In this document: piece after piece, positions 2,449 through 35,994 of the stretch
How positions within the stretch are numbered: position 1 is the stretch's first letter
Layout: the number at the start of each line of letters is the position of its first letter
DNA from: Oscillospiraceae bacterium
GTDB taxonomy: Bacteria > Bacillota > Clostridia > Oscillospirales > CAG-272
Direction of reading: 5' to 3'
Assembly (NCBI GenBank): GCA_015064185.1
Contig: SVSS01000003.1
Location: forward strand, 111,791 to 175,790
DNA: 64,000 nt
Made by a program: the position numbers and the translations under genes
Notes under the pieces: generated by a model
Database searches by the model: none
The model's input: the letters and a program-made list of their open reading frames with translations, nothing else
What the model was told of the DNA's origin: nothing

Positions 2449-2452
2449 ATAA

Positions 2453-3331: not shown

Positions 3332-3341
3332 TAAAAACAAT

Positions 3342-3389: not shown

Positions 3390-3420
3390 GGGCAATGCGC
3401 AAGCGAAAAATGCTATCGCG

Positions 3421-3585
3421 TTAGCTTTTTTCGCTATGATCCTGCTTCTTTCCCGTTGGCTCAAAGTTGCCAAGCGTGGTTTCACGTGCCTCGCGGTCAA
3501 GTGCTTGGAGCGCGAAATTGCCGAGCATTGGCGCGCTCACAGCAATATTTCTCATGACGTTTTCTTGCTTTTTACGGTCTTCCAT
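3421..3585 (-). CDS. Small hypothetical protein (54 aa), below the ORF-track cutoff
   Basis: ATG preceded by gggggtgag (RBS). Translation is MEDRKKQENVMRNIAVSAPMLGNFALQALDREARETTLGNFEPTGKKQDHSEKS. It sits 39 nt downstream of the radical SAM gene on the same strand and is followed by the terminator. Confidence 0.45.
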   Translation of the reverse strand: MEDRKKQENVMRNIAVSAPMLGNFALQALDREARETTLGNFEPTGKKQDHSEKS

Positions 3586-3624
3586 ATTCTCACCCCCGAA
3601 TTAGGATGGGCAGAGCGTAGCAAT

Positions 3625-4503: not shown

Positions 4504-4639
4504 AGCAGTGCCCCCCTTTCACTTATTTTCCCCTTCATATTAGCACAGTACCTCAAAAAATTCAAGTTTTTTGCACGATCATGCACCAAAAGATAAAAAA
4601 TATGGTAAAATAGTAGCAGTATTTTTGGAGGTATGTCAT

Positions 4640-22325: not shown

Positions 22326-24020
22326 GTGAGCATGCGTGAAGGTGCGCAAGGCGGTTTTTGCAATCTTAGAGAAATGCTTTGCGCTACTCGAGAAAAACAC
22401 GGCACGTGTGTGGCTTTTCATGAAAAAAAGCAGGGCTTTTATCAGCATATTTCCTACGGACGCCTTTGTGAGGAGGCGGGGGCACTGGGCACGGCGCTGT
22501 GCCGTATGCTGCCTGCCTCGCCTCGCGTGCTCCTTGTAGGCAAAAGCAGCTACCATTGGGCACTTTCCTTTGTTGCACTGCTTTGTGGCGCGGGTATACC
22601 CGTGCCGGTAGATGCAGCGCTTTGTGCCGAGGATATCGAGGAAATTGCGGCAAGCGCCCACGTAGATGCTGTGCTTTACGATGCGGATGCGGCAGAGCTT
22701 GTCAAGGGGCTTTCGGGTATTACCTCCATTTGTTTTGATGCGATTCCGCAGCTCGTTGAGGATGGCAGAACTGTCGTGCTTGCGGGCGAGGAGGATATCT
22801 TTGCCACGCCGATCGATCCCGAGGCTCCCGCTATGATCTTTTATACAGGCGGCGCTGCAAAAGGGGTCGTTCATTCACACAAAAGCATTGCAGCCACGCT
22901 TGCGGGAATATGTGCTTCGAGCACGGTAAATGAGGAGGATATCTTCCTTTCGGTACTGCCGTTATCCCACGTGTATGAGTGCGTGTTGGGGCTCTTGTAT
23001 CCCATCGCGTGCGGCGCTTCTATTGCGTTTGCCGAGGGGCTTGGCAGCATGATGCGCAATATGCGTGAGATCCACCCCACCTGCATGGTTACGGTGCCTT
23101 TCCTTGCCGAGCGTATCTATGATAAGCTTTGGCAACTAGTAGGTGAAAATGAAGCACGGGTACGGCGTGCGATTGCTATATCAGACCCCGTTCGTCCTCT
23201 TTCCGCAAGACAAGCGCTGAAGGAGCGCTTGCTTGCGCGTGCGCGCGCGCCCTTTGGCGGCGCGCTGCGCTATATGATGATCGTGGGCGGTTGCTTGCCC
23301 GCGGCACTTTCAAAGGGGCTTCGTCAGCTTGGTATTTTTGCCGCACAGTGCTACGGCATGGCGGAATGCGGTGGGCTTGTCGCAATGACCTCGCCCACGT
23401 GCTACCGTGACGGCACGGTTGGCATGCCGTTACCAAACGCTGCGGTCGAGCTTTTGAACCGGCAAGCGGACGGTAGCGGTGAGATACGGATCAAGTCAAG
23501 CGGCTTGATGCTGGGATATGCCGATGATGAGGCGTTCTTGATGAGTGAGCCGCAGCAAGAGGGCTATGATACGGGTGACATGGGCAGGATAGACAGCGAC
23601 GGATTTTTACATATCATTGGTAAAAAGGAAAACTGCATCATTCGTGCTGACGGTACGGTGATCTCGCCCGAGGAAACAGAGCAGCTGCTTTTGCAAAGCC
23701 CGCTTGTGCGAGAGGCGGTTGTGGTAGGTGTGCGTGATGATGCACGAGGGGATTGTGAGCCCGCCGCCATGATCCTGCCCGATATAGAAAATGCCGCGGA
23801 TCTCTTTGGTCCTGCCTTTACACGGGAGGCGTTGGAGAGCGCTGTTGGCGAGTGGATCTGTGAGATCAATAAGGGGCTGCCTGATGCGGCACAGATCCTG
23901 CTCTTTGCCCTGTGTGAAACCGCGTTTCCAAAGGATGCGGCAGGGCGTGTGATACGTGCCGCAGTCGCCGCAGAGCTTCAAGCGGCAAAGGGCGTTGATG
24001 AGAAAACTTTGAGTCAATAG
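22326..24020 (+). CDS. AMP-binding enzyme (acyl-CoA synthetase-like)
   Basis: Adenylate-forming motifs YTGGAAKGVVHSH, GYGMAE-like QCYGMAECGG, and DTGDMG. The start is uncertain (GTG 22326 or ATG 22332). Confidence 0.75.
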   Translation: MSMREGAQGGFCNLREMLCATREKHGTCVAFHEKKQGFYQHISYGRLCEEAGALGTALCRMLPASPRVLLVGKSSYHWALSFVALLCGAGIPVPVDAALCAEDIEEIAASAHVDAVLYDADAAELVKGLSGITSICFDAIPQLVEDGRTVVLAGEEDIFATPIDPEAPAMIFYTGGAAKGVVHSHKSIAATLAGICASSTVNEEDIFLSVLPLSHVYECVLGLLYPIACGASIAFAEGLGSMMRNMREIHPTCMVTVPFLAERIYDKLWQLVGENEARVRRAIAISDPVRPLSARQALKERLLARARAPFGGALRYMMIVGGCLPAALSKGLRQLGIFAAQCYGMAECGGLVAMTSPTCYRDGTVGMPLPNAAVELLNRQADGSGEIRIKSSGLMLGYADDEAFLMSEPQQEGYDTGDMGRIDSDGFLHIIGKKENCIIRADGTVISPEETEQLLLQSPLVREAVVVGVRDDARGDCEPAAMILPDIENAADLFGPAFTREALESAVGEWICEINKGLPDAAQILLFALCETAFPKDAAGRVIRAAVAAELQAAKGVDEKTLSQ

Positions 24021-24031
24021 GAGTAAAGCAT

Positions 24032-24883
24032 ATGAGCAAAAAGGTTGTTATTTGCAGTGACAGCACCACAGATCTTAGTGCGGAGTTGATTGCAAAATAT
24101 GACATTAAAACAGTGCGTCTTACCGTCAATCTTGGTGGTAAGGTATATACTGACGGGCTGGATGTCGACCCCGATATGATCTACCGGCATTACGAGGCAC
24201 ACGGTGAGTTGCCTAAGACCGCTGCCCCCAACATTGCCGCCTTCTGCAGCTTCTTTGAGGAGCAGACAGCAAACGGGTGTGCCGTAGTGCTTTTTACGAT
24301 CAGTGGGGAAATGTCCTCTACCTATAATAACGCGCGCCTTGCGGCGGCAAATTATCCCGATGTTTATGTAGTGGATACGAGAAACCTCTCCACGGGCGGA
24401 GGACTTTTGGTCTTGGCTGCGGCGCAAATGGCACAAAGCGGTATGTCGGCAGGTGAAATTGCAAGGGAGAGCGCCTCGCTGGTTGACCTTGTGGATGCCT
24501 CGTTTGTGATCGACAATCTTGAATTCTTACATAAGGGCGGCAGATGCTCGGCAGTTGCGGCGCTTGCCGCGGGCGTGCTGCAATTAAAGCCCTGCATTAC
24601 GGTGCGCGGCGGCAAAATGGGCGTGGCGAAAAAATATCGCGGCAAATTTGCACGCGTGCTGCAGACCTATATTGCCGATCGCATTGGTACTGCTGCGAAT
24701 ATCGATCTCTCGCATGTGTTTGTGACGCATGCGGGGTGCGATGAGGAGATCGTGGCACAGTGCGTGGCACAGGTGAAGGCGGCCGCGCCTTGGGGAGAGG
24801 TGCATGTGACCCGCGCGGGCTGTACTGTTTCCTCACACTGTGGCAGAAATACGCTTGGCGTGCTGTTTATGCGTAAGAAATAA
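24032..24883 (+). CDS. DegV-family fatty-acid-binding protein
   Basis: VVICSDSTTDL N-terminus, FVIDNLEFLHKGGR motif, 283 aa. Confidence 0.85.
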   Translation: MSKKVVICSDSTTDLSAELIAKYDIKTVRLTVNLGGKVYTDGLDVDPDMIYRHYEAHGELPKTAAPNIAAFCSFFEEQTANGCAVVLFTISGEMSSTYNNARLAAANYPDVYVVDTRNLSTGGGLLVLAAAQMAQSGMSAGEIARESASLVDLVDASFVIDNLEFLHKGGRCSAVAALAAGVLQLKPCITVRGGKMGVAKKYRGKFARVLQTYIADRIGTAANIDLSHVFVTHAGCDEEIVAQCVAQVKAAAPWGEVHVTRAGCTVSSHCGRNTLGVLFMRKK

Positions 24884-24897
24884 GAACAGAACAAAAG

Positions 24898-24945
24898 AAA
24901 ACCGCTGTCCGCGTTGCCTTTGGCAACGCGGACAGCGGTTTTTTG
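24898..24945. terminator. Bidirectional intrinsic terminator
   Basis: Long stem accgctgtccgcgttgcc/ggcaacgcggacagcggt flanked by A and T runs. Confidence 0.65.
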
Positions 24946-24979
24946 CAGAGGAGTAATACGTTTTGTGTGTTTTTGAAAA

Positions 24980-26356
24980 TTATTTGTTGCGCAGACCCTT
25001 GGGGTAGTGGTTCTTGAGCTTTCCGTTTACGCACTTGCCGCCGCCAAGGGGGGCGCCCTCAAAGAAAACACAAGCGTAGCCGTTTTTCTCGTGTGCCAGC
25101 TCAGGGCAGTCGATCTCCTCGCCGCGCAGATATTGTGCAATACGCGGATCGTTGCAAGTGAGGTGCAGCTGTCGGCAAAACAGGTGTCCGTATGCCGAAT
25201 AGAGCTGATGGTGTGGCTCAATGCGATTTTTTTGGAGTGTGCCGATGCACACGCCCGCTGCAAAAACACCCGTGGGTGGTAGGGGAATGTCGGGGGCAAG
25301 ATAGAGGCTGTCGCGCAGGCGACAAAGCGTGCCTTGCGGTTCCTTGGTGAGTGCTTCGGCAAAAAGTGCCGCAACGGTGTCGATTTCCGCGCGGGTGAGC
25401 GGTAGAGCGTTGCTTTTTGGCGGACTATTCTTTTGACTTGCGGTAGCGCGTACCATGAGGGCAAGGAATTGCCCCTCGCCGGGAGAGCGATGCGGATAAA
25501 AGCGGCGGCAGGAGGTGAGATCTTGCCCGGCAACAGGGATGCCGTCTGCTGTAACCGCGGCGACCGAAGGGGCAACGGGAATGAGCGAAAAATCGGGGTG
25601 CGTGTCAAGAAAATGCGCTACATTTTGCTCGTTTTCCTCAAGCGAAAAGGTACAGGTGGAGTAAAGCAGCCTGCCGCCGGGTGTCACACACCGTGCGGCA
25701 TGAGAAAGGATCTCGCGCTGACGCTCGGCGCAAAGCCGAACGTTTTCCTCGCTCCATTCCTCTCCCGCTACCTCATATTTGCGCAGCATGCCTTCGCCTG
25801 AGCAGGGCGCGTCCACCAAAACAAAATCAAAGTAAGCACCGTAAAAATCGGCAAGTGCCTTGGGGGCAAGATTGGTCACCACTGTATTTGTAGCACCCAT
25901 ACGTTCCATGTTGCCCTGCAAAATCCTGCACCGTGCAGGCACGTATTCGTTGGATACTAAAACGCCTCCTGTTCCGATCGCAGCGGCAAGCTGCGTGGAT
26001 TTTCCACCGGGTGCCGCGCAAAGATCCAGTACACGCGTGCCCTCGGTAATTTCAACGGCCGCGATCGTGCTGATCGCAGAGGGATCCTGCATATAGATCA
26101 TGCCTGCATGGTGCAGGGGGAGCGCTCCCACCTTCTCATCGGTTGCATAAAAGGCATTGGGGGCAAAGGGAAGGGGCTTCGGCACAAAGGGGAGGAGGGG
26201 CATAAGGCGCTCGGCGGTCGTTTTTATCGTGTTGACACGAAAGGCACGCACGGCAGGGGCTTCGAGGGCGGCACAAAACGCGTCGTATTCGGCATCGCCG
26301 AAAAGATCCCGCATGCGCGCGAGAAATTTTGTTGGGATCATGCGGTATATTTTCAT
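24980..26356 (-). CDS. RsmB/RsmF-type RNA cytosine-C5 methyltransferase
   Basis: SAM-binding DLCAAPGGKS, catalytic DAPCSGEG and YSTCT motifs. The start is uncertain (26356 or 26341). The listed ORF from 26494 would run into the tRNA promoter. Confidence 0.8.
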   Translation of the reverse strand: MKIYRMIPTKFLARMRDLFGDAEYDAFCAALEAPAVRAFRVNTIKTTAERLMPLLPFVPKPLPFAPNAFYATDEKVGALPLHHAGMIYMQDPSAISTIAAVEITEGTRVLDLCAAPGGKSTQLAAAIGTGGVLVSNEYVPARCRILQGNMERMGATNTVVTNLAPKALADFYGAYFDFVLVDAPCSGEGMLRKYEVAGEEWSEENVRLCAERQREILSHAARCVTPGGRLLYSTCTFSLEENEQNVAHFLDTHPDFSLIPVAPSVAAVTADGIPVAGQDLTSCRRFYPHRSPGEGQFLALMVRATASQKNSPPKSNALPLTRAEIDTVAALFAEALTKEPQGTLCRLRDSLYLAPDIPLPPTGVFAAGVCIGTLQKNRIEPHHQLYSAYGHLFCRQLHLTCNDPRIAQYLRGEEIDCPELAHEKNGYACVFFEGAPLGGGKCVNGKLKNHYPKGLRNK

Positions 26357-26436
26357 CCTTTCTTGGATATAATGGCATATAGATAAAGTATACCGCCCGG
26401 CACAGATACTTGTCAATAACTTTTTTTCAAAAAGGC

Positions 26437-26465
26437 TTGACATCGGCATTTTGATATGGTATAAT
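26437..26465 (+). promoter_or_regulatory. Consensus sigma-70 promoter for the tRNA-Leu/tRNA-Met pair
   Basis: TTGACA at 26437-26442, a 17-nt spacer, and TATAAT at 26460-26465. Confidence 0.6.
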
Positions 26466-26502
26466 AGCAAAGCGAGTGAGGGCAACCTCAGCATTTCGGC
26501 TT

Positions 26503-26590
26503 GCCGGAATGGCGGAACTGGCAGACGCCCGGGACTTAAAATCCCGTGATACTTAGTATCGTACCGGTTCGATCCCGGCTTCCGGCACCA
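26503..26590 (+). tRNA. tRNA-Leu (anticodon TAA), long variable arm, CCA encoded
   Basis: Acceptor gccggaa/ttccggc, anticodon loop cttaaaa, long variable arm gtgatacttagtatcgt, T loop ggttcgatcc. Confidence 0.9.
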
Positions 26591-26605
26591 TTTTTAATTT
26601 CATAT

Positions 26606-26683
26606 CGCGGGGTAGAGCAGCTTGGTAGCTCGTCGGGCTCATAACCCGGAGGCCGTGTGGTTCAAATCCCACCCCCGCAACCA
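26606..26683 (+). tRNA. tRNA-Met (anticodon CAT) with initiator hallmarks
   Basis: Almost collinear with bacterial initiator tRNA: a C1/A72 mismatch and three consecutive G-C pairs in the anticodon stem (cggg-ctcataa-cccg). It is one nt longer than expected, which places a bulged T in the T stem (gtg-t-gg/cccac). Confidence 0.8.
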
Positions 26684-26689
26684 AAAAAA

Positions 26690-26720
26690 TTCCTCGGACT
26701 TGTTCCGAGGATATTTTTTT
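26690..26720 (+). terminator. Intrinsic terminator of the tRNA operon
   Basis: cctcgga-cttgt-tccgagg followed by a T7 run. Confidence 0.65.
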
Positions 26721-26814
26721 ACCTCTTCACTTTTCACTCTTCACTCTTCACTTTTCTCCCTCCGCAGAGGAATTTTTTTTGGAGGTAATAAGTAATAGTG
26801 AATAGTGAAAAGGT
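26721..26814. repeat. Imperfect palindrome built from heptamer repeats (copy 1)
   Basis: Left arm tcttcac/ttttcac x5, centre ccgcagaggaatttttttt, right arm gtaataa/gtaatag/tgaatag/tgaaaag. Confidence 0.7.
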
Positions 26815-26824
26815 ATTAGATGTA

Positions 26825-26846
26825 GCTTTTCGCTGTGGCGAAAAGC
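26825..26846. repeat. Short hairpin gcttttcgc-tgtg-gcgaaaagc (family copy 1)
   Basis: Perfect 9-bp stem. Related copies at 28883-28907 and 62591-62612. Confidence 0.7.
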
Positions 26847-26864
26847 ATTTTTTATTATATCAGG

Positions 26865-26893
26865 TTGAAAAGTAATAGGTTTTATGGTATAAT
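26865..26893 (+). promoter_or_regulatory. Near-consensus promoter of cassette 1
   Basis: TTGAAA, 17-nt spacer, TATAAT, about 30 nt upstream of the four-helix-bundle ORF. Confidence 0.5.
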
Positions 26894-26923
26894 TATTATA
26901 ACAAAGTAAAAGGCGGTAAGGTT

Positions 26924-27277
26924 ATGGCTGACAGTCCTTTGATAGTGAAATCTAAAGCGTTTGCGCTTGATGTGATACAGGTATGCAAGGAACTCAGAGT
27001 GGCAAAGTGCGAGAGTGCTTTGATCAATCAGTTTTTACGCTCGGGAACAAGCATAGGTGCGAATATCAGAGAAGCTTTTTATGCTCACGGAAAGGCTGAT
27101 TTTATTGCTAAACTGCAAATAGCTTTGAAAGAGTGTTCCGAAACGGAATATTGGATTGAACTTATTTTAGAAAGTGGATATTATCACGACAAAACCTTGC
27201 TCGATAAATGTACGGAGCTAAAAAGGATTTTAATTTCTTCCCTTAATACAGCAAAAGCAAATCAAGATAATAAATAA
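26924..27277 (+). CDS. Four-helix-bundle protein (23S rRNA intervening-sequence protein family)
   Basis: Family hallmark QFLRSGTSIGANIREA...KADFIAKLQIALKECSETEYWIELI. 117 aa. RBS aaaaggcgg. Confidence 0.8.
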   Translation: MADSPLIVKSKAFALDVIQVCKELRVAKCESALINQFLRSGTSIGANIREAFYAHGKADFIAKLQIALKECSETEYWIELILESGYYHDKTLLDKCTELKRILISSLNTAKANQDNK

Positions 27278-27349
27278 ATCTCAAAAAAGCACTGGACTTC
27301 TCGCGATCTTTCGGTATAATGAGTGTTACCACCCGAAAGGAGCGCGAAA

Positions 27350-27565
27350 ATGATAGACTTAAAGCCCTATTATCAAGTAAAACTGACTCTTTGCCGTTGT
27401 ATGTCATACTATCTCATCAATCCCCCGAAAACCGAGAACGAAAAATACGCTTACGACATTATTCAAAAGGCGTATTGGATAAACGAGAAAAAGATTGAAA
27501 TGCTTGATTTTGATAAAAGCAAAAAACTACTCCAAGATTATTATAAATTTCAAATAAACAAATGA
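27350..27565 (+). CDS. Hypothetical protein (71 aa)
   Basis: RBS aaaggag upstream of the ATG at 27350. The stop overlaps the next start (ATGA). No recognisable motif. Confidence 0.5.
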   Translation: MIDLKPYYQVKLTLCRCMSYYLINPPKTENEKYAYDIIQKAYWINEKKIEMLDFDKSKKLLQDYYKFQINK

Positions 27566-28269
27566 ATGGTGGTGATAAGGTGAAAAACTTTGTAGGTTTT
27601 ACCTCAAACGGTGAATATTCCGTTGGTTGCACAGGGCAAACGGTATATTTATATGACAAAGGTGGCAAGGAGCTTGCAAAATTCAAGGATTTGAGATATG
27701 CTTATTCTCCTATGATTTCACCTGACGGAAAAATTCTCGTTATAAAGTCAACGGAAGGTAGGCTTGCGGTTTATTCGCTTGAATCTCACACACTTGTAAA
27801 AAAATTCCGCTTCTCAAAGGTTGACGGTTCGCAGGATGATAATTTCTGCTTTTCACCCGATAGCAAGGAATTTTATAATATTGAGCGACACATTGACAGC
27901 TGTAAAACTGCTCTTTCAATATACGATACATCAGATTTTTCTTTGAAAAAGAAAATTCTGCATGATGATTTCATCCTTGTTCTGACAGCAGTCGAGTATG
28001 ATACCGAAGAAAACAAGGTATTTCTGTTAGGGTATATGCGAGAGTCTGAAAGTGGGGTTGCGTATAAATTTTTTGTGGGAGAACTTGTAAAAAACAGCCT
28101 ACAAAGCATTGTGTACATAAGTCAAAAAGAGCACGACTTTTATTTGGATTGTAAAAGCTTTGAAATTCATTCTTTTGCAGTTACAGATTGCTATACCCCT
28201 GACGAGATAGGTAGAATCAAAAACGCCAAGCACTCATTGGCGAAACTATGGAAATACTATTCAAAATAA
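27562..28269 (+). CDS. Hypothetical protein with beta-propeller-like (PD40/WD40-like) repeats
   Basis: Repeated blade-like strings SPDGKILVIKSTEGRLAVYSL and FSPDSKEFYNIE. Translationally coupled to the upstream ORF. AT-rich codon usage. Confidence 0.55.
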   Translation: MNGGDKVKNFVGFTSNGEYSVGCTGQTVYLYDKGGKELAKFKDLRYAYSPMISPDGKILVIKSTEGRLAVYSLESHTLVKKFRFSKVDGSQDDNFCFSPDSKEFYNIERHIDSCKTALSIYDTSDFSLKKKILHDDFILVLTAVEYDTEENKVFLLGYMRESESGVAYKFFVGELVKNSLQSIVYISQKEHDFYLDCKSFEIHSFAVTDCYTPDEIGRIKNAKHSLAKLWKYYSK

Positions 28270-28302
28270 TTGGCATCTATTAAGGATGCACAACACAAAA
28301 AA

Positions 28303-28336
28303 GAAAACACCCCCTCGTGGGGTGTTTTCTTTTTTG
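28303..28336. terminator. Bidirectional intrinsic terminator after cassette-1 cargo
   Basis: gaaaacacccc-ctcg-tggggtgttttc flanked by A and T runs. Confidence 0.65.
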
Positions 28337-28499
28337 TCCACGGGGCTTGCGTTTTGAACCCTGCGGCGTGCCATTACTGTGGAAGCTGTAAGCATAATGC
28401 CGCCGCAGAGAAGGTTGCCGTTTTTGCAAAGCAAAATGGTCGGCGGTGCCGACAAGGCAACCTTTAAACGTGCGAGCGAAGCGAGCAAAGTGGGGCAAC

Positions 28500-28550
28500 A
28501 TCCCACCCCCGCAACCAAAGACTTGTTGAAAAACGAGTCTTCTTTTTTTC
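28500..28550 (+). repeat. Direct copy of the tRNA-Met 3' end (20 nt) plus its own terminator hairpin
   Basis: atcccacccccgcaaccaaa is identical to 26666-26685. It is followed by the hairpin gacttgt/acgagtc and a T run. Confidence 0.8.
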
Positions 28551-28735
28551 CCTTTGGCAAAAATGGTGCTGGGGTGAGGTTTGAGCCTCACGAGCTACGC
28601 TCTATGACCTGAGCATTCAAGCCCTACGGGCACAGAATGCCGTCGGGGTCTATGCTTGCCGTCTAAGGCGGCAACATACTGCGTCATTTTGCGTGTCCGA
28701 CCGCAAAATAGCAGATAACCCATTCCCAGCTTTTT

Positions 28736-28786
28736 TCAAATCCCACTCCCGCAACCAAAAAGAAAAGTCGCGCAAGCGGCTTTTTT
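28736..28786 (+). repeat. Second direct copy of the tRNA-Met 3' end (26 nt, 1 mismatch) plus terminator-like hairpin
   Basis: tcaaatcccacTcccgcaaccaaaaa compared with 26662-26687. It is followed by gtcgc-gcaa-gcggc and a T run. Confidence 0.8.
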
Positions 28787-28788
28787 GT

Positions 28789-28880
28789 ACTTTTCACTAT
28801 TCTCTTTTCACTCTTCACTTTTCTCTTACTCTCCCGCGCGACTTTTCCGGAGAAGAGATAAGAAGAGAGAAAAGAAAAGG
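28789..28880. repeat. Imperfect palindrome built from heptamer repeats (copy 2)
   Basis: ttttcac/tattctc/ttttcac/tcttcac/ttttctc, centre cgcgcgacttttc, then a purine-rich right arm ggagaagagataagaagagagaaaagaaaagg. Confidence 0.7.
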
Positions 28881-28882
28881 TA

Positions 28883-28907
28883 GCTTTTCTCCCTTTGGTC
28901 GAAAAGC
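28883..28907. repeat. Short hairpin, degenerate family copy 2
   Basis: gcttttc...gaaaagc in the same position relative to the palindrome and promoter as copy 1. Confidence 0.6.
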
Positions 28908-28908
28908 A

Positions 28909-28936
28909 TTGATTTTTAGTTAAAATGTGATATAAT
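28909..28936 (+). promoter_or_regulatory. Promoter of cassette 2 (extended -10)
   Basis: TTGATT, 16-nt spacer ending in TGa, TATAAT. Confidence 0.5.
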
Positions 28937-28959
28937 GATTTCAAAGAGAGGTGAAGACA

Positions 28960-29118
28960 ATGAATAGCCCCTTACTTGAAAAATTAATGGATTTCGCAAC
29001 GCAAATTGTGCTTTTCTACGAAGAATTTTCAAAGAGTAAAAAGGATACGACGATCGCAAAGCAATTATTGCGTTCTGCCACAAACGTGGGTGCGAAAACA
29101 AACGAAAACGAAGGTTGA
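28960..29118 (+). pseudogene. Truncated four-helix-bundle ORF (52 codons)
   Basis: MNSPLLEKLMDFATQIVLFYEEF...IAKQLLRSATNVGAKTNENEG stops inside the family core motif (compare QFLRSGTSIGANIREA in the intact copy). Confidence 0.65.
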
Positions 29119-29147
29119 TTTTTTGTTAAGCTGAAAGGATTACACAT

Positions 29148-31247
29148 ATGATTAAATCAATACTAAAGGGGATAAAATCGCCCGATAAAGAATTTTCGCC
29201 TATTCCCTTTTGGTTTTTGAATGATACTTTAACGGATGAGGAAATCGCACGTCAGCTTTGCGATTTTCACGATAAGGGGATTTTTGGAGTAGTGCTCCAT
29301 CCTAGAATCGGTATTCCCGAGTCAACAACCTACCTTTCAGACCAATTTATGCATTTCATAAAGGTTGCCGTACAAACGGCAGCAGGTCTTGGCATGTCGG
29401 TTGTTCTATATGACGAAGCGATGTACCCGTCAGGAAGTGCGCACGGGTTGGTCGTCGCCGAAAACCCAAAATTTGCGGCACAGGCAATTGTTCTGACAGA
29501 GGATTGTACTGAGGGAAAGCTTATTGCAAAATGCAAGAGTGGAAAATATATCGTTCAGGTTAACAGCGGTGGAACGATACGCGGAATTCATTACGGAGAG
29601 GACGACTTTGAGGAAAACGCGCCGCCTGCGGCAGATCTTTTGTCACAGGCATCGGTCGATACCTTTATCATGTTGACCTATCAAAGATATTTTGATGTTG
29701 TTGGCGAGTATTTTGGCAGTACCGTGATTGGTTTCTTTACCGATGAGCCGTCGGTACTCGGTCGTTGCTGCAGAAAAAATTGTTTTCCTTTTACCTGGGA
29801 TTTCGAAATTGATTTTGAAAAAGCAGGCGGAAGGCTCGACGAGCTTGAAGGTCTGTTTACGGGCGAGGAAAACGAAAGCACAATTCTATATCGTAAAATG
29901 ATCTTTCAGCGCGAGCTTGATATTTATTATGAATCGCTCCACCGTTTTTGTGCGGAGCACGGTATCGCCCTTATGGGACACCCTCATTTTGGTGATGATA
30001 TCGAATGTGAGAGGTATTTTGATATCCCCGGACAGGATATGGTATTAAGATGGGTTGCCCCCGAAAAGGATCCGCTTGGCGGCAGGGAAAGCGCGCAGGG
30101 CAAATGCTCCTCGGATGCGGCTCGCATAAGCGGAAAAAGGAGAAATTCCAACGAGTGCTTTGGCGTTTGCGTCAGAAACGATATCCCCTGGTATTTCACG
30201 GGAGCAGATATGAAATGGTATATTGACTATCTCGGAGTTCGTGGAGTAAATATGTTTATCCCACACGCGTTCTATTACAGCGTAAGAGGAAAAAGAAAGG
30301 ATGAAAGACCTCCGGATGTCGGTCCTAACAATATATGGTGGGAGCATTACGGTCAGATTTCCGATTATATAAAGCGCATATCCTATATTATGACCGATTC
30401 CGCAAACGAAGCGCGCGTTGTCGTAATGTGTGAAAACCGCGATATGCGAATAGACAAAGTAAGAGAATTCTATGAGAATCAAGTGGAGTTCAATTATCTG
30501 CCCTACGCTGATTTTCACCCGGATATGGTCCAGGGAAATTCGCTTGTCGTAGGTAAAAATGTCTATACCTATGTATGCTGCGATGACAATGAGCGCGTTC
30601 CCTCCCTGCAAAAAATAGAGGGAATTAAAGATCTCGGATACCGTGATATTTATACAGAAAATCCCTGCCCCACGCTCCGAGTCTCGCGCATTCAAAAAAA
30701 CGGTGTCCGAATGATTTTTCTGACCAACGAGGGTGACACAGATATTGTCACGCAGGCTTCTATCGATGATGCAACCGAGCTTATCTTTATTGATCTTTGG
30801 ACCGGATGCTATTGGAAACAGGAATGTAAGCGATACAACGGAAAAACGCATTTTGATCTTTCGATGAAATATCGCGAGAGCTTACTGTTGATCCTTGATT
30901 GTAATGGGACAGTCGACGCACCCTTACAAAATAAAAAGGAATATGCTTCCGTTGATTTCAGAATGATCCACCACGATGAGACAAAGTATATAAAAACATA
31001 CGCCGGTAGCTTAAATGCGGACAAGGTAAACAATGAAAACTTATGGATATCTGTGGATGCTGAGGAAATGGTCGAATGCTTTGTAAACGGTAATTTCGTA
31101 GGTGTCAGTCTTTGGAACAGGCATGAGTTCAATTTAGCGTCTTATCTCCACAGCGGAGAAAATGAAATTCTTTTAAGAGTAACCGGAAATGCGGCAAACC
31201 GATTTACTAATTATAAGATTCCATACGGCCTTAACAATGATGCCTGA
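29148..31247 (+). CDS. Putative glycoside hydrolase (GH106-like N-terminal region plus C-terminal jelly-roll / sugar-binding-like domain)
   Basis: N-terminal PIPFWFLND...GIFGVVLHPRIG...YLSDQFM...VVLYDEAMYPSG pattern recalled from rhamnosidase-like hydrolases. The C-terminal NGNFVGVSLWNRHEFNL...ENEILLRVTGN is galactose-binding-like. The family assignment is from memory and unverified. Confidence 0.5.
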   Translation: MIKSILKGIKSPDKEFSPIPFWFLNDTLTDEEIARQLCDFHDKGIFGVVLHPRIGIPESTTYLSDQFMHFIKVAVQTAAGLGMSVVLYDEAMYPSGSAHGLVVAENPKFAAQAIVLTEDCTEGKLIAKCKSGKYIVQVNSGGTIRGIHYGEDDFEENAPPAADLLSQASVDTFIMLTYQRYFDVVGEYFGSTVIGFFTDEPSVLGRCCRKNCFPFTWDFEIDFEKAGGRLDELEGLFTGEENESTILYRKMIFQRELDIYYESLHRFCAEHGIALMGHPHFGDDIECERYFDIPGQDMVLRWVAPEKDPLGGRESAQGKCSSDAARISGKRRNSNECFGVCVRNDIPWYFTGADMKWYIDYLGVRGVNMFIPHAFYYSVRGKRKDERPPDVGPNNIWWEHYGQISDYIKRISYIMTDSANEARVVVMCENRDMRIDKVREFYENQVEFNYLPYADFHPDMVQGNSLVVGKNVYTYVCCDDNERVPSLQKIEGIKDLGYRDIYTENPCPTLRVSRIQKNGVRMIFLTNEGDTDIVTQASIDDATELIFIDLWTGCYWKQECKRYNGKTHFDLSMKYRESLLLILDCNGTVDAPLQNKKEYASVDFRMIHHDETKYIKTYAGSLNADKVNNENLWISVDAEEMVECFVNGNFVGVSLWNRHEFNLASYLHSGENEILLRVTGNAANRFTNYKIPYGLNNDA

Positions 31248-31321
31248 TTATAAAAACAAGCGGGGCTTTGATTTCATTGACTTTTTGAGGTTGACATCTA
31301 TTTAGGCTGTACAACACAAAA

Positions 31322-31357
31322 CGAAAAAGCACCCCTTGTGGGTGCTTTTTTCGTTTT
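31322..31357. terminator. Bidirectional intrinsic terminator after cassette-2 cargo
   Basis: gaaaaagcaccc-cttg-tgggtgctttttc, preceded by a conserved 30-nt box shared with 28270-28302. Confidence 0.65.
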
Positions 31358-31373
31358 GCTTGCCCTTGGCAAG

Positions 31374-31393
31374 GCGGGGGTGGGATTTGAACC
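31374..31393 (-). repeat. Inverted copy of the tRNA-Met T-loop/acceptor segment (20 nt)
   Basis: The reverse complement ggttcaaatcccacccccgc is identical to 26659-26678 and then diverges (cttgcca). Confidence 0.75.
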
Positions 31394-31480
31394 ATGCGAA
31401 GGAGGCGCATGGGGCGACCTTTGGTCGCATCAGACCGAGCACGCGATGGTAGCGTTTGGTAATGAACGTGCCGTATTTTA

Positions 31481-32299
31481 TTATTTTGCCTCATCTTTTT
31501 CATTATAGTAATTTCTTGTATCTTCAGCACATTTTTCGATACGTTCCATTATTCCATCTTCGTATATATCAGCATAAAGAAAATCTTTAAGATTTATCTC
31601 CCCTTCGGGGCGCTGGTAGGATTTTTCGGGATCGATGGGGGGATATCTCAGCACAAAATGTACGGAATAGAATGAAATGCCCGATCGATCTAATAATTCC
31701 TTTGTTTTTAACAGTATTTCGGCTGCCTTTTCGTTCGTTACGGTGTCGCTGTCGATATACAGTACGAGCTTTCCGTTTTTAGCTCCCAGCTCGCCTACGT
31801 TATAAAATCTGTCGTTGACAAGCTCACTTCTCTTGATGGCGCCTTCCACCGCTTCCGTACCGACCTCGCGCTCAAATTCCAAGTCACCGTACCCCATAGA
31901 TACGGTGTAAGGATAAGATCGGCTGCCAAGAACGGTATCTACCATTTCACGGTACTCAAAAAACAATCTGTTCGCCACATTTCCGTGTCCCTGAACGCGT
32001 GAGCTGTAATCATCATATCTTAACTTGCCAAACATGGAGATCCGCAATGTAAAATGACCATCCATGCTGCTGGGGGATACGATGTGAGCGTAATATCCGC
32101 CGTCCTTAAAGCTATAGGATACCTCTTCTATCGTATAATCGGTATTAGGATAGGTTGCTTCAAGGTGTTTTTCTGCTGTGTGTCGAGCCACCATTTTTGA
32201 AATGGGATTACCCACAAGCCCATTTGCGAACCAACAAACCCCGACGATCAAAACAATAGCCAAACATAGAGCTGATATTTTTAGAATCCGTTTTTTCAT
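31481..32299 (-). CDS. Membrane-anchored hypothetical protein, third gene of the ECF operon
   Basis: N-terminal TM ISALCLAIVLIVGVCWF. A 4-nt overlap with the anti-sigma gene. No catalytic motif recognised. Confidence 0.55.
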   Translation of the reverse strand: MKKRILKISALCLAIVLIVGVCWFANGLVGNPISKMVARHTAEKHLEATYPNTDYTIEEVSYSFKDGGYYAHIVSPSSMDGHFTLRISMFGKLRYDDYSSRVQGHGNVANRLFFEYREMVDTVLGSRSYPYTVSMGYGDLEFEREVGTEAVEGAIKRSELVNDRFYNVGELGAKNGKLVLYIDSDTVTNEKAAEILLKTKELLDRSGISFYSVHFVLRYPPIDPEKSYQRPEGEINLKDFLYADIYEDGIMERIEKCAEDTRNYYNEKDEAK

Positions 32300-32850
32300 T
32301 TTTTATCCTCCTTCCGAAGGGCGAAATGTAAGAGAAAAGCGATCGTCACTCCGATGAGGACAAAGATGGCATACAACACGGTCCACATAAGCGTATCCGC
32401 AAAGCCTAACTCCACAAGTTGAAAAGCGAATATGGCAAGGTCGATGAAAAGCAACAACACGGGTACTTTATAAACCGCTTTCCATTTGAATACGTAATAT
32501 CCAAAAATGCCAACGACCGGCATAATCAAGCTATTGTACATGAGGTTATTGCCTGCAGTCCACCCGAAGCCAAGGAAAATTAAAAATATGAGCGCGGCAT
32601 AAGCAATAGAATAAAACTGTTTGTTCATACGTTTCATCATTTTCTTGAAAGACTTTGCATCATCAGACATTTGAACAGGCTTTGCTTCGGTCGTTGATAG
32701 CTCCGCGCCCTCTTTCAAATTTACAAGCTCTCTTTGACATTCGTCACAACCTTTCAGATGCTCGTTTATATACTGCGCCGTTTCTGTGCTGACCATGTTT
32801 TCAATGTAAAGTGGGAGCAGGTCCCTTGTTACACTACATTCCGTTTTCAC
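32296..32850 (-). CDS. Anti-sigma factor (zf-HC2 type) with multi-TM C-terminal region
   Basis: N-terminal C...H-x3-C-x2-C pattern (CSVTRDLLPLYIEN...HLKGCDECQ) followed by four hydrophobic segments. Overlaps the sigma gene. Confidence 0.7.
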   Translation of the reverse strand: MKTECSVTRDLLPLYIENMVSTETAQYINEHLKGCDECQRELVNLKEGAELSTTEAKPVQMSDDAKSFKKMMKRMNKQFYSIAYAALIFLIFLGFGWTAGNNLMYNSLIMPVVGIFGYYVFKWKAVYKVPVLLLFIDLAIFAFQLVELGFADTLMWTVLYAIFVLIGVTIAFLLHFALRKEDKK

Positions 32851-33343
32851 CGTTCTTGCCCTCCAATCTTTCTTTAATCATTTTTCGCGCTCGGTGATAG
32901 GTGACGCAAGCCCAATTCTCGGTCTTGCCAAAGATCTCGGCAATTTGCTTGAACGAGAGCTGTGCATACACACGCCACAGAAATACTTCCTTGTATGGCT
33001 CACTAACATTGTGCAAAGCTTTTTGTATTCGCTCGATCTCGTCACGTCGGGCACACTCCTCTGCCACGCTTGGGGCGAGGTCGGGTATCTCCTGCATTTT
33101 GGCTTCGTCAATGTGTTCTGTTCGATTGCTTTTCTTTGTATAGGAATAATAACAGTTTTTTGCTATTTGGCAAAGCCAAACGCGCACGTCACAATCGCCG
33201 CGGAAGCTGTCGATCGATTTCATTGCTTTGAAGAAGGTATCACTTGTTATTTCTTCGGCCATATGTTCGTTTCCCGAAAGCCGCAGAATATACAAGTAAA
33301 CATCGTTAAAATAGGTATTGTACAGCTGCTCAAAATCTGTCAC
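32834..33343 (-). CDS. ECF-type sigma-70 family RNA polymerase sigma factor
   Basis: Region 2 (YNTYFNDVYLYILRLSGNEHMAEEITSDTFFKA) and region 4 HTH (LSFKQIAEIFGKTENWACVTYHRARKMI). GTG start at 33343 with RBS aaggagg at 7-nt spacing. Confidence 0.8.
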   Translation of the reverse strand: MTDFEQLYNTYFNDVYLYILRLSGNEHMAEEITSDTFFKAMKSIDSFRGDCDVRVWLCQIAKNCYYSYTKKSNRTEHIDEAKMQEIPDLAPSVAEECARRDEIERIQKALHNVSEPYKEVFLWRVYAQLSFKQIAEIFGKTENWACVTYHRARKMIKERLEGKNGENGM

Positions 33344-33525
33344 GCCATCACCTCCTTCACTTATAAGACTCCGAAGAAAAGAAAATCTTACAACCTTTTT
33401 TCTTAGTATACCATATTTTGTCTTGCAATGTGTGAATAAGGGTGTTGATTCTTTCGAATATGCACATATTCGGGCTTTTTCGTTTTGCTTCCGCAAACGC
33501 GGGGATCACACTTATGGGGGCACTA

Positions 33526-33554
33526 TTTACAAGATGTGGCGTTTGTGCTATAAT
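33526..33554 (+). promoter_or_regulatory. Candidate sigma-70 promoter
   Basis: TTTACA, 17-nt spacer, TATAAT. Confidence 0.45.
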
Positions 33555-33585
33555 GGTTTTATCAAAGCAAGGATGGTGTAGTGCT

Positions 33586-34140
33586 ATGGAGTTCGGAGAA
33601 AAAACGTTATACCAAGAGGCGCGCTCGGTGATAGCGGAAATTGCAGAAAAGGCAAATTTAAAAAGGGGCAGTATTTTGGTGATCGGTTGCTCGACCAGCG
33701 AGATCGTGGGTGCGAAGATCGGCACCAATTCGGCACCCGCGGTGGCGGCAGAGGTCTTTGGTGCATTTTTGGATTATGCAAAGGAAAATGGCATCTATCT
33801 TGCAGTGCAGTGCTGTGAGCATCTGAACCGTGCCATTGTGATCGAGCGTACGGCAGCCGCCGGGCTTGAGATCGTTAACGCGGTTCCGCAGCCCAAGGCG
33901 GGCGGCTCTATGGCAACGCAGGCGTATGCCATGCTGCAAGACCCTGTTGTGGTAGAAGAAATAAAAGCCGACGCGGGCATAGATATCGGCTTTACGCTCA
34001 TTGGCATGCACCTTAAGCGCGTGGCGGTGCCCGTACGGCTTGAAAGCAATCGCATTGGAGAAGCGACTGTTGTTGCGGCGCGCACGCGCCCCAAGTTTAT
34101 CGGCGGAGTAAGAGCCGTTTACGATGAAACGATGCTGTGA
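33586..34140 (+). CDS. UPF0340 / TIGR01440-family protein (YwlG-like)
   Basis: ILVIGCSTSEI...GIYLAVQCCEHLNRAIV...PKAGGSMA...GMHLK pattern characteristic of this family. Confidence 0.7.
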   Translation: MEFGEKTLYQEARSVIAEIAEKANLKRGSILVIGCSTSEIVGAKIGTNSAPAVAAEVFGAFLDYAKENGIYLAVQCCEHLNRAIVIERTAAAGLEIVNAVPQPKAGGSMATQAYAMLQDPVVVEEIKADAGIDIGFTLIGMHLKRVAVPVRLESNRIGEATVVAARTRPKFIGGVRAVYDETML

Positions 34141-34190
34141 GGTGGATCAGAAAAGGAAAAGCAGGCTTTTACCTGCCGCAAAATAATCTC

Positions 34191-34264
34191 GTAGGGGCGA
34201 TTCACGAATCGCCCGCCTCAAATGGCATAAAAACAAAAACGGGCGATTCGTGAATCGCCCCTAC
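34191..34264. repeat. Pair of REP-like palindromic units in inverted arrangement
   Basis: gtaggggcgattcacgaatcgcccg ... cgggcgattcgtgaatcgcccctac. Each unit is itself a hairpin. A third unit lies at 62492-62527. Confidence 0.85.
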
Positions 34265-34364
34265 AGAAAAGGACGGAGATCTTATACCTTCGTCCTTTTT
34301 TGCACTTGCAAGCGAGGGCGAAAGGTGCTACAATTTAAGTAGTAGATCGATCAAGGAGTGTTTT

Positions 34365-35579
34365 ATGTTTATACTGAAAAAAATAGGATGCCGCGCGGTG
34401 CAGCTTGCTTTTCGTGCGGTACTGCCCGTGCTTCCGTACAGAGAGCCGAGGATCCTTTCCTCTGTTGATGCATTGGGAGAGGTGCTTTTGGCGCGCGGTG
34501 AGGCTTCGGCATTGATCGTGACAAGCGCAGGGAGTGCCAAGAGGGGTATGATCGTTCCCATTGAGGAAGTGCTGCAAAAGCAGGGCATCCGCTATGCTAT
34601 CTATGATAAAACGCAACCAAATCCCACGGTTGCAAATGTAGAAGAGGCACTCCAAATGTATTACGAAAACGGTTGTGATAGCCTGATTGCCATTGGTGGC
34701 GGGTCTGTGATGGACTGTGCCAAGGGGATCGGCGCGAGAGTCGCTTACCCTAAAAAGGAGCTGAACAAGCTGGCGGGGGTGATGAGGGTGCTTCGCAAGA
34801 TCCCCTTGCTCATCGCCATCCCAACAACGGCGGGCACAGGCAGTGAGGTGACGCTTGCTGCCGTTATTACAGATGAAAAAACGCGCCACAAGTATGCGAT
34901 CATGAGCTTTCCCTTAATTCCGCAGTATGCCGTGCTTGATGCCGCGCTCACCTGCTCTATGCCGCCGCATCTCACCGCCACTACGGGTATGGATGCACTG
35001 ACCCACGCAGTGGAGGCTTATATCGGGCGCGCCACGTGCAGAAAAACAAGGCGTCTGGCGCTTGATGCCACGGCACTTGTGTTTGAAAACATAGAAAAAG
35101 CATATACCAATGGGCAGGATACCGTTGCGCGTGAAAATATGCTGCATGCCGCATACAAGGCGGGGGTTGCGTTTTCGATGTCCTATGTCGGGTATATACA
35201 CGCCATTGCGCATTCTCTTGGTGGAAAATACGATACCCCGCACGGGCTTGCCAACGCTGTTATTATGCCTCACGTGCTTGGGGGATACGGCAAGAGCGCA
35301 CACAAAAAATTGCACCGCCTTGGCATTGCCGCAGGTGTTTGCAATGCGGGCGACAGCCACGAGGTTGGGGCGAAAAAATTTATTGCGGCTGTGAGGGTGC
35401 TAAATGCAAGTATGCAGATTCCCGCGGTTATTTCGGATATCAAGGAAGCGGATATCCCCGCACTTGCTAAGCATGCCGAGCGGGAGGCAAATCCGCTTTA
35501 TCCTGTGCCGAGGCTGATGACGGGCAAGGAGCTTGAGGTCTTATATTATCAAATTGCGGGGCTTAACACCAAGAAATAA
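34365..35579 (+). CDS. Iron-containing alcohol dehydrogenase
   Basis: GGGSVMDCAKG, PTTAGTGSE, and His-rich metal site (HAIAHSLGGKYDTPHG). Confidence 0.85.
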   Translation: MFILKKIGCRAVQLAFRAVLPVLPYREPRILSSVDALGEVLLARGEASALIVTSAGSAKRGMIVPIEEVLQKQGIRYAIYDKTQPNPTVANVEEALQMYYENGCDSLIAIGGGSVMDCAKGIGARVAYPKKELNKLAGVMRVLRKIPLLIAIPTTAGTGSEVTLAAVITDEKTRHKYAIMSFPLIPQYAVLDAALTCSMPPHLTATTGMDALTHAVEAYIGRATCRKTRRLALDATALVFENIEKAYTNGQDTVARENMLHAAYKAGVAFSMSYVGYIHAIAHSLGGKYDTPHGLANAVIMPHVLGGYGKSAHKKLHRLGIAAGVCNAGDSHEVGAKKFIAAVRVLNASMQIPAVISDIKEADIPALAKHAEREANPLYPVPRLMTGKELEVLYYQIAGLNTKK

Positions 35580-35633
35580 CAACGCTTGAGGGTGCGGACT
35601 CAGAGTTCAGCAAAATTTTTTAAAAACTCTTGA

Positions 35634-35840
35634 CTTTTACCTAAGGAAGAAGCCTACCTCAACCGTGAGCTTTGCAACGAAACCGGCATACAAAAGATGC
35701 TTGATGACCTTTACAAGGAAGGCAAGTACGGCGTAAAGACCGGCGCGGGCTTTTACGATTACGCCGACGGGAAAGATGTTGAGGCGCTGAAAGCGCGTGA
35801 CGAGAAGTTTGTAAAGATCTACAAGGTGCTTTATTCCTAA
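35634..35840 (+). pseudogene. C-terminal fragment of 3-hydroxyacyl/3-hydroxybutyryl-CoA dehydrogenase
   Basis: A start-less reading frame, ...LDDLYKEGKYGVKTGAGFYDYADGKDVEALKARDEKFVKIYKVL*, typical of the Hbd C-terminus and followed by its own terminator. The listed minus-strand ORF 35637..35852 is its antisense shadow. Confidence 0.7.
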
Positions 35841-35912
35841 CAGAACAAGCACCCTTTTTTGGGGTGCTTATTCTTTTTTTAAAAGATACGTATAAAATAT
35901 TTTCGACACGAA

Positions 35913-35941
35913 TTGACTTTATAAAACAGGGGTGTTATAAT
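35913..35941 (+). promoter_or_regulatory. Candidate sigma-70 promoter for the uracil permease-upp operon
   Basis: TTGACT, 17-nt spacer, TATAAT. Confidence 0.5.
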
Positions 35942-35994
35942 AAAAATTGGGTACATACTAAAAAATAAAGATACCCAAAAAAGAGGAGGGAAAA

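Follow-up and report, generated by a model that had tools for sequence, protein, structure and literature searches.

Several classes of bacterial mobile DNA live at the 3' ends of tRNA genes. Tyrosine-integrase islands, integrase-less CIMEs (cis-mobilisable elements) and the cargo-only satellites of tycheposons have in common a tRNA 3'-end site, a tRNA end and terminator restored by the element, a displaced or duplicated tRNA 3' fragment at the far end, tandem accretion and variable cargo. In integrons and CALIN arrays (clusters of attC sites lacking integron integrases), small units of one to a few genes stand in arrays, with an imperfect palindrome per cassette, a cargo of GNAT, small unknown and immunity-like proteins and a recombinase that lies outside the cassette. 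In this paper we analyse a 64,000-nucleotide stretch of contig SVSS01000003.1 from an Oscillospiraceae bacterium (the window), in which two cassettes resembling both groups follow tRNA-fMet 3'-end sequences. Each joins a leader of terminators, heptamer arrays and a promoter to an open reading frame (ORF) of the four-helix-bundle (4HB) family PF05635 and to unrelated cargo.

The comparison suggests that the cassettes work most like integrase-less tRNA-island derivatives and integron cassettes, and that they fail the defining tests of each. They differ from tRNA islands in being very small (0.6-3 kb), in the lack of an integrase in about 80 loci (by a regular-expression scan of the ORFs of 82 loci, restricted to 6-kb flanks), in a junction that lies after the CCA and not in the anticodon loop or T-loop, and in their signature 4HB gene and heptamer arrays; moreover, a single conserved leader is used behind at least 14 tRNA types. 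Unlike integron cassettes, each tRNA-docked cassette has its own promoter and two terminators and carries a conserved protein gene. The palindrome is set apart by its layout, being placed 5' of the genes and built from heptamers and not from attC R and L boxes, and docking is at tRNA ends instead of attI, with no IntI seen beside the arrays.

Two further comparisons come from the protein and from the arms of the palindrome. Outside these cassettes, to our knowledge, PF05635 proteins have been described only in rRNA intervening sequences and as Avd, the accessory protein of diversity-generating retroelements (DGRs). The cassettes have a protein of the same family and fold as 23S rRNA intervening sequences and Avd, are likewise associated with stable-RNA genes and, in related elements, have inverted arms on either side of the ORF. 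They differ from the intervening sequences in lying behind tRNA genes and not inside rRNA helices, in the position of the palindrome upstream of the ORF, and in having their own promoter and cargo genes; they differ from DGRs in that no reverse transcriptase domain was seen in ORFs within about 8 kb of the module, and no template/variable-like repeat at 24000-36000. Gene-less elements of 80-150 bp in intergenic regions recall miniature inverted-repeat transposable elements (MITEs), and the leader resembles the two joined ends of a transposon circle, but the ends are heptamer arrays of variable copy number, with no target-site duplication and no cognate transposase identified.

The reading that we favour, with moderate confidence, is that these are small (~0.6-3 kb), recombinase-less, site-specific cassettes of gut Clostridia, which dock at the boundary between the tRNA CCA and the A-tract and are mobilised in trans. 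The two modules in the window are probably an intact and a decayed member of this one widespread family.

Two cassettes behind tRNA-fMet

An earlier note, made from the letters of this DNA alone, had described an ordered module of palindrome, hairpin, promoter and 4HB ORF that occurs twice, and all four parts were found in both copies, at the positions given. It had placed each copy after a tRNA 3'-end copy and its terminator. This holds for the tRNA-end copy ahead of the second module, whereas the first follows an intact tRNA-fMet gene and the terminator belongs to the module itself. The note gave no right end, which we define by a 22-nt motif. The parts of cassette A (copy 1) and cassette B (copy 2) are as follows.

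26605-26682, + strand: tRNA-fMet (CAT), initiator-type, the docking site (ARAGORN and Rfam)
26680-26682 and onwards, + strand: segment A, the CCA of tRNA-fMet with the next A-run and the terminator 5' arm
26683-28296, + strand: cassette A as a whole (leader, 4HB gene, 71-aa and 235-aa cargo ORFs, 3' motif)
26691-26720, + strand: terminator 1 (hairpin S at 26691-26711, then a T-run), supplied by the cassette, which would end the tRNA transcript
26721-26759, + strand: arm H, pyrimidine-rich heptamer array of repeated T(C/T)TTCAC
26764-26782, + strand: centre A', inverted copy of 'CCAAAAA + terminator 5' arm', 13 nt exact in the window
26783-26813, + strand: arm H', purine-rich heptamer array A(A/G)GTAATAAGTAATAGTGAATAGTGAAAAGG
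26825-26856, + strand: hairpin 2 (26825-26846) and T-run, a second intrinsic-terminator-like insulator ahead of the promoter
26865-26893, + strand: promoter TTGAAA-17-TATAAT with TG extension, 11/12 consensus matches
26924-27277, + strand: 4HB gene, PF05635 / TIGR02436, 117 aa
27350-27565 and 27562-28269, + strand: cassette A cargo, 71-aa and 235-aa ORFs
28273-28296, + strand: 3' motif of cassette A (GCATCTATTAAGGATGCACAACAC), with an ATCT box 22 nt before the junction to AAAA
28736-28757, + strand: docking site of cassette B, a 22-nt tRNA-fMet 3'-end copy with 1 mismatch
28758-31317, + strand: cassette B as a whole
28761-28786, + strand: cassette B terminator
28790-28833, 28834-28850 and 28850-28881, + strand: cassette B arm H, centre and diverged arm H'
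28883-28907, + strand: cassette B hairpin 2
28909-28936, + strand: cassette B promoter TTGATT-16-TATAAT
28960-29118, + strand: truncated 4HB ORF, 52 codons
29148-31247, + strand: cassette B cargo, a 699-aa GH106-like ORF
31294-31317, + strand: cassette B 3' motif

The limits of cassette A are the points where same-cargo cassettes of other genomes cease to be alike. Its GC content is 0.34-0.40 against 0.55 in the flanks, and a GC content of 0.34-0.48 extends from the module out to about 33600, against about 0.55 around it. Profile matches agree with the earlier description of the 4HB ORF as intact in copy 1 (PF05635, E = 7e-23, 81.3 bits with a cut-off of 33.8; TIGR02436, 99.4 bits with a cut-off of 24) and reduced to 52 codons in copy 2, where the TIGR02436 score of 28.1 bits passes the cut-off and the Pfam score of 24.8 bits lies below it. 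The 19-mer TTCACTCTTCACTTTTCTC has six matches in the window, all within the two modules (0.01 expected). The leaders of the two copies are 75% identical, their ORFs have 33% amino-acid identity and their terminator stems are unrelated. Outside the window, a relative of the copy 1 4HB is 99% identical (L029; L numbers denote loci), and the leader variant of cassette B recurs with 93% identity, without any genes, in L045. The window copies are diverged family members and not the outcome of a recent duplication.

The tRNA-fMet gene lies downstream of a tRNA-Leu(TAA) (26503-26590; ARAGORN and Rfam). It is 78 nt long and has an additional base in the T-stem (GTGTGG...CCCAC), as is also the case in L001, L061 and L069, so the extra base is probably real and not an assembly error. 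The leader promoter is conserved among the relatives compared, and a heptamer-like AAGTAAT sits inside its spacer. A promoter-like site (TGGACT-16-TATAAT, 27293-27320) lies between the 4HB gene and the 71-aa ORF, which means that the cargo of cassette A may also be expressed independently of the leader promoter. Around the island the window encodes housekeeping or sigma/anti-sigma functions. At 34191-34264 there is a perfect inverted repeat of 25 nt, GTAGGGGCGATTCACGAATCGCCCG, whose arms are separated by 24 nt; it also occurs beside a heptamer element in the metagenome locus L153, which suggests a dispersed palindrome of the repetitive extragenic palindromic (REP) type.

Docking sites, right ends and arrays across the family

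Metagenomes hold thousands of 4HB relatives at 85% identity or more, and a close relative is encoded in 455 species-representative genomes. The best 80 of these 455 are all uncultured gut Clostridia (Acutalibacteraceae, Oscillospiraceae, Faecousia, Christensenellaceae and others). The earlier note had proposed a portable leader in front of unrelated cargo, a proposal which would be undermined if no further copies existed, or if the two copies were a simple local duplication with no different cargo elsewhere. Neither is the case, as the same leader stands before many different cargos in hundreds of genomes and on at least 120 metagenome contigs, and the copies are diverged. Upstream of the relatives the leader has a fixed order. 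The tRNA CCA is followed by an A-run, hairpin S, a T-run and ACTTTTTCAC(TCTTCAC)n, then by a centre ending in TTTTTGG, by AAGTAATAAGTAATAGTGAATAGTGAA, and finally by the second hairpin with its T-run, the promoter, a ribosome-binding site and the 4HB gene.

For the leader survey we used 86 leaders from 82 loci. Fifty-six of the 86 abut an intact tRNA called by ARAGORN, of 10 amino-acid types (Met 30, Trp 9, Gln 7, plus Ser, Val, Leu, Tyr, Arg, Glu and Pro), and the remaining leaders stand next to 3' fragments of tRNAs or to the point where an earlier cassette ends. At the left junction the sequence is ...CC/AAAA (the slash marks the junction), with C at -1 in 82 leaders and at -2 in 70. A scan of metagenomes with the purine arm found at least 120 stretches or contigs and adds tRNA-Cys, Lys, Thr and Asn, so that in genomes and metagenomes together the same leader is found behind at least 14 tRNA types. 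Hairpin S falls into many sequence classes (ttcctcgg, atcgacaag, ccttctcgg, tccccgagg, gccccaaagg, gtcccaaag, atcctgaatgcg, atcctcattcg and others), and these are common to different tRNAs. As the terminator is not tied to the identity of the tRNA, it seems to travel with the cassette.

In some loci the DNA around the cassette is informative. The tRNA-Cys(GCA) loci L102, L113, L123, L133, L163 and 13 others have a near-identical block around tRNA and cassette, which begins about 110-250 nt upstream of the tRNA, and extends at least 4 kb past the cassette. Between contigs the block is 95-98% identical, and the genes upstream of it share only about 70% identity or are unrelated. In this group the 4HB gene is followed by one or two copies of a 174-nt segment. 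L076 and L081 carry the same cassette behind orthologous upstream flanks, with unrelated DNA right of the junction. In L079 a 4.9-kb island (946-5860) lies in tRNA-Leu(TAA), between the tRNA and the 4HB cassette; it encodes a 505-aa large serine recombinase (4332-5849), directly followed by a displaced tRNA-like end. In L086 a cassette stands directly behind the same tRNA-Leu(TAA) that the L079 island occupies.

Same-cargo cassettes of different genomes are alike up to the 22-nt motif, beyond which follows either a locus-specific series of A-run, hairpin and T-run or the next leader. The motif is of four types (ATCTTTTTTGTCCGCCCTTCAC; ATCTTTTTCGGTGCGACGTGCC; ATCTTTTTCGGCACCTCTACTC; and, in the lineage of the window, ATCTATTAAGGATGCACAACAC), all with an ATCT box 22 nt before the junction. 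The right-end motif of the Val cassette resembles the local tRNA 3' end (AAGTCCTATAAGAATACGCGTACC vs GAGTCCTATATCGTCCACC), and the same resemblance is seen between a Trp cassette and tRNA-Trp in L036, and in Gln cassettes. Clear repeats of the tRNA 3' end are found in L001 (25 nt), L011 (a perfect 33-nt tRNA-Gln end as a direct repeat), the window, L025, L043, L070, L074 and L090, and elsewhere the decayed 22-nt motif takes their place. Because the direct repeats are confined to a minority of loci, we redefined the right end from the same-cargo comparisons. By these comparisons the unit begins with the A-run after the CCA and closes with a decayed motif that resembles a tRNA end and finishes in C(C). 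Both junctions of the cassette read ...CC/AAAAA.

In the cassette lineage of the window (right ends of L022, L023, L024, L028 and L029; window 31255-31317) the 3' motif is usually doubled, with about 50 nt between the copies. The doubled motifs flank a conserved TTGATTTTATTGACTTTTT, which may be an outward-facing -35-like box. Cassette A has one hybrid motif, as though the interval between two copies had been deleted.

Arrays of two or three cassettes are common, and so are gene-less minimal cassettes that consist of a leader and a 3' motif (arrays or minimal forms are seen, for example, at the first L070 leader and the third L045 leader, in L041, L033 and L046, and in the window). Between and after the cassettes we find units of about 220-240 nt, here called U units, in which a terminator is followed by the 3' end of the local tRNA in inverted form, by some 130-150 nt rich in GC and by the same tRNA end in direct orientation. 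Three of them are found in the window.

28297-28517, + strand: unit U1, with a palindromic terminator (28295-28337), a degenerate inverted tRNA-end-like stretch, ~150 nt and a tRNA-fMet 3'-end copy (28496-28517)
28518-28757, + strand: unit U2, with a terminator (28518-28541), an inverted tRNA-3'-end-like stretch (28565-28596) and a tRNA-fMet 3'-end copy (28736-28757)
31318-31397, + strand: partial unit U3, with a terminator (31323-31351) and an inverted tRNA-fMet 3' end, 21 nt exact (31374-31394)

Elsewhere they occur in L032 (1-547, three in tandem), in L024 (1640-1850, one), in L074 (~5440-5600, a tRNA-Val version) and to the right of the cassette in L036 and L029. Their internal part is 80-84% conserved between species, and they supply further CC/AAAA docking sites. 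In the U unit of L036 the inverted copy merely prolongs the terminator palindrome into the tRNA acceptor sequence. We considered whether U units are tRNA, tmRNA or other RNA genes and rejected this, since ARAGORN and Rfam were negative and no more than a generic terminal stem folds.

Heptamer arms, centre and the 4HB gene

The two arms of the palindrome are conserved in different ways. Upstream of 74 of 77 4HB genes arm H' agrees with its consensus at 97.4% identity, whereas the third codon positions of these genes are only 57% identical, so that H' is under purifying selection. The number of repeat cores in arm H varies between 2 and 10 among loci. An invariant H' next to an H of changing copy number is more in keeping with a site recognised by its sequence than with a stem that is conserved as such. 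The earlier note had suggested either protein-binding iterons or an RNase III-type processing stem; our results favour the first and disfavour the second for the form seen in the window. Compensatory changes between the arms, for which it had proposed folding both copies, did not appear, the mismatches in the window palindromes being of C/A type and uncompensated. The arrays are most likely a protein recognition or recombination site. The palindromes do fold, strongly in copy 1 (z = -6.3 for the + strand, -8.5 for the - strand) and less so in copy 2 (-2.8 and -3.7).

Both hairpin S and hairpin 2 look like intrinsic terminators. Hairpin 2 is present in nearly all leaders, its structure being kept with at least five different stem sequences. 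The centre A' is an exact inverted repeat of 'CCAAAAA + S 5' arm' over 10-19 nt in 83 of the 90 leaders to which this test was applied, whereas shuffled controls average 5.5 nt and do not exceed 11 nt, and it covaries with S across at least eight terminator classes. We rejected the possibility that A' is a direct copy of the terminator 3' arm left by target-site duplication. A' is the exact Watson-Crick complement of the S 5' arm, whereas the terminator's own 3' arm has G-T wobbles (L025, L043). Re-templating of A' from each target tRNA was likewise unsupported, as in L039 and L042 an extra C of A' mismatches the tRNA end.

The same heptamer arms are found as the two inverted ends of small intergenic elements away from tRNAs (L101, L105, L109, L149, L161 with two copies, L171, L203, L205 and L216). 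ORF-less, MITE-like versions with the order H'-inner-H are 80-150 bp long, and their inner part of 1-100 nt forms a single hairpin or a pair, including one that is similar to hairpin 2. Versions of about 500 bp with the order H'-4HB-H (L166 168-704, L124 916-1383, L218 999-1456) carry the ORF in either orientation and without a promoter of its own. No target-site duplications were seen around the heptamer-ended elements. Since the arms are the ends of these small elements, the H-centre-H' leader has the look of two such ends brought together across a spacer, and the tRNA cassettes look like a permuted form of the heptamer element opened at CC/AAAA. The H'-4HB-H layout also resembles ORF-bearing rRNA intervening sequences. 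The comparison of the palindrome with such sequences, made in the earlier note, may thus apply to these relatives and is disfavoured in the window, where the palindrome lies upstream of the promoter.

The 4HB gene is under strong purifying selection. Among 78 genes dN/dS (the ratio of nonsynonymous to synonymous divergence) is 0.045, with a median dN of 0.07 and a dS of about 1.6. The AlphaFold2 model of the copy 1 protein has four helices and a pLDDT (predicted local distance difference test) of 95.9, and its Foldseek matches are 2RLD (TM-score 0.85-0.87), 2GSC and, more distantly, Avd (4DWL, TM-score 0.75). PF05635 has been linked to the DGR accessory protein Avd (PMC10053308). About 8,300 clusters at 50% identity match the 4HB family. 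A 4HB gene is absent from 10 of the 86 leaders.

The cargo varies widely between loci and includes cytidine-deaminase-like, PNP/UDP phosphorylase, AAA_15/21 ATPase, DMP19-like, GNAT and GH106-like proteins, as well as many without matches. The first cargo ORF often overlaps the 4HB stop codon. The 71-aa ORF belongs to a family found in 8 loci, in which the second genes differ, and the 235-aa ORF has weak beta-propeller matches only. PADLOC gave no match for the window proteins and NCBIfam none for the cargo of cassette A.

Searches for known relatives were largely negative. Rfam, at both gathering and permissive thresholds, passed only tRNAs, with hairpin look-alikes below threshold, and found no rRNA in the window. 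A blastn search with leader and 4HB gene gave one weak partial phage match and no plasmid match, and among 2.9 million viral contigs none has the H' pattern. No description of the architecture was found in the searchable literature (on PF05635, the intervening-sequence protein, four-helix bundles with tRNA or cassette, Avd outside DGRs, and tycheposons). This agrees with the earlier note, which knew of no such element, and the cassette family is apparently undescribed.

Possible routes of movement and their meaning for gut Clostridia

The sequences establish the anatomy of the cassettes, the rule for their target, the variability of the cargo, the arrays, and purifying selection on the 4HB gene and arm H'. 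For the movement itself we propose the following course of events. A cassette would insert at the extreme 3' end of a tRNA gene, between the encoded CCA and the A-tract of the tRNA terminator, or at tRNA-end-like sequences from earlier insertions, which would produce tandem arrays. The leader would stand in for the displaced terminator and bear two inverted heptamer arrays, which meet at a centre of 15-20 nt whose sequence is complementary to that of the left junction. Its second terminator may serve as an insulator, and its sigma-70 promoter and ribosome-binding site would drive the 4HB gene and the cargo, which may often be translationally coupled to 4HB. The 4HB protein and the heptamer arrays would form the conserved cis/trans pair of the family, the protein acting on the arrays as a regulator or accessory factor. 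We infer that movement would be by site-specific recombination around the common CCAAAAA core, and that the catalyst would be a recombinase encoded elsewhere in the genome.

Several observations weigh against this reading. The motif scan of the 82 loci, over 6-kb flanks, identified no recombinase for the family, its one match being the serine recombinase of the separate island in L079; the ORFs of the window island have no recombinase domain (with partial Pfam coverage), and no transposase ORF is found in the cassettes. No excised circle, empty site or occupancy polymorphism at an otherwise identical locus was found, and only two locus pairs have an upstream flank in common. The dS of about 1.6 is saturated, which means that most copies are old and that much of the distribution could be vertical. 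The tRNA-Cys blocks of at least 4 kb, which include the tRNA and are 97% identical across different flanks, indicate that some of the spread is by larger transfers. Clear direct repeats of the tRNA 3' end (20 nt, at most 3 mismatches) are present in only about 9 of 80 loci. Finally, this reading does not account for the A/A' complementarity or for the U units.

A bolder reading, which we hold only tentatively, is that PF05635 4HB genes and inverted heptamer arrays are unrecognised minimal mobile elements which target stable-RNA genes. The arm-ORF-arm form would then explain the origin of ORF-bearing rRNA intervening sequences, and the derived form of gut Clostridia would be integron-like, docking promoter-equipped cargo behind almost any tRNA gene. 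Its chemistry would lie outside the known integrase and transposase families, and the choice of junction would depend on the internal segment, which is complementary to 'CCAAAAA + terminator arm'. There is a real, if minor, chance that the mechanism is new in kind.

It is unlikely that the 4HB protein and the heptamer arrays are themselves the mobility machinery, either alone or by recruiting a host nuclease or reverse transcriptase as Avd does, with tRNA cassettes and 23S rRNA intervening sequences as two manifestations of one system. Such autonomy would account for 4HB being the only gene common to all cassettes and for its strong purifying selection, for the ~500-bp 4HB-only elements between inverted arms and their ORF-less MITE-like versions, and for a leader (H-A'-H') that resembles the abutted ends of an excised transposon circle; the lack of a linked recombinase in the motif scan and the Avd-like fold (TM-score 0.75) point the same way. 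However, a 115-aa helical bundle has no known catalytic motif, 10 of the 86 leaders persist without 4HB and the end-flanked elements show no target-site duplications. The leader lies upstream of the promoter and is therefore absent from the cassette's own transcript, which argues against simple retro-mobility.

We likewise give little credence to a static platform, in which leader and 4HB gene are an old, vertically inherited tRNA-trailer module and the cargo turns over behind it, through homologous or illegitimate recombination or through other elements inserting at the pseudo-tRNA end. The saturated synonymous sites, the pair L076/L081 with its common upstream flank and cassette and different DNA right of the junction, the use of the same tRNA by another island in L079 and the large-block transfer in the tRNA-Cys group are all in keeping with it. 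It does not easily explain why the same leader classes occur behind at least 14 tRNA types and behind earlier cassettes, why terminator classes are common to different tRNAs, or why the two junctions are so exact and well conserved, the 22-nt motif being fixed; the existence of tandem arrays and of minimal cassettes also speaks against it.

Very improbable is an RNA-level element like a 23S rRNA intervening sequence, with the palindrome as the RNase III stem of a read-through transcript. In its favour are the length and stability of the stems (z = -6.3 to -8.5), a protein family that is that of rRNA intervening sequences, and the end-flanked relatives, whose arms bracket a promoter-less ORF. 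Yet the window palindrome lies between two terminators, upstream of a promoter and outside any rRNA gene, its arm mismatches are of C/A type and uncompensated, and with 2-10 cores in the left arm and an invariant right arm, pairing is not the conserved property. A simple local segmental duplication of the tRNA-proximal region, suggested by two copies within 2.1 kb that both follow tRNA-fMet 3'-end sequences, is refuted by the 75% identity of the leaders, the differing terminator stems, the 33% amino-acid identity of the ORFs and the nearer relatives elsewhere (99% for the 4HB of L029 and 93% for the leader of L045).

If the cassettes are mobile, as in the reading that we favour, their compact leader with its terminator, insulator and promoter, and the rule of docking behind any tRNA, may provide engineering parts for gut anaerobes. 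They would also have a concrete, testable function to offer for a very large orphan family of 4HB proteins. Having no recombinase in cis, they would be missed by island, integron and transposon finders alike, and would thus constitute a hidden route of gene flux, for resistance-like, immunity-like and carbohydrate genes, in abundant and mostly uncultured gut Clostridia.

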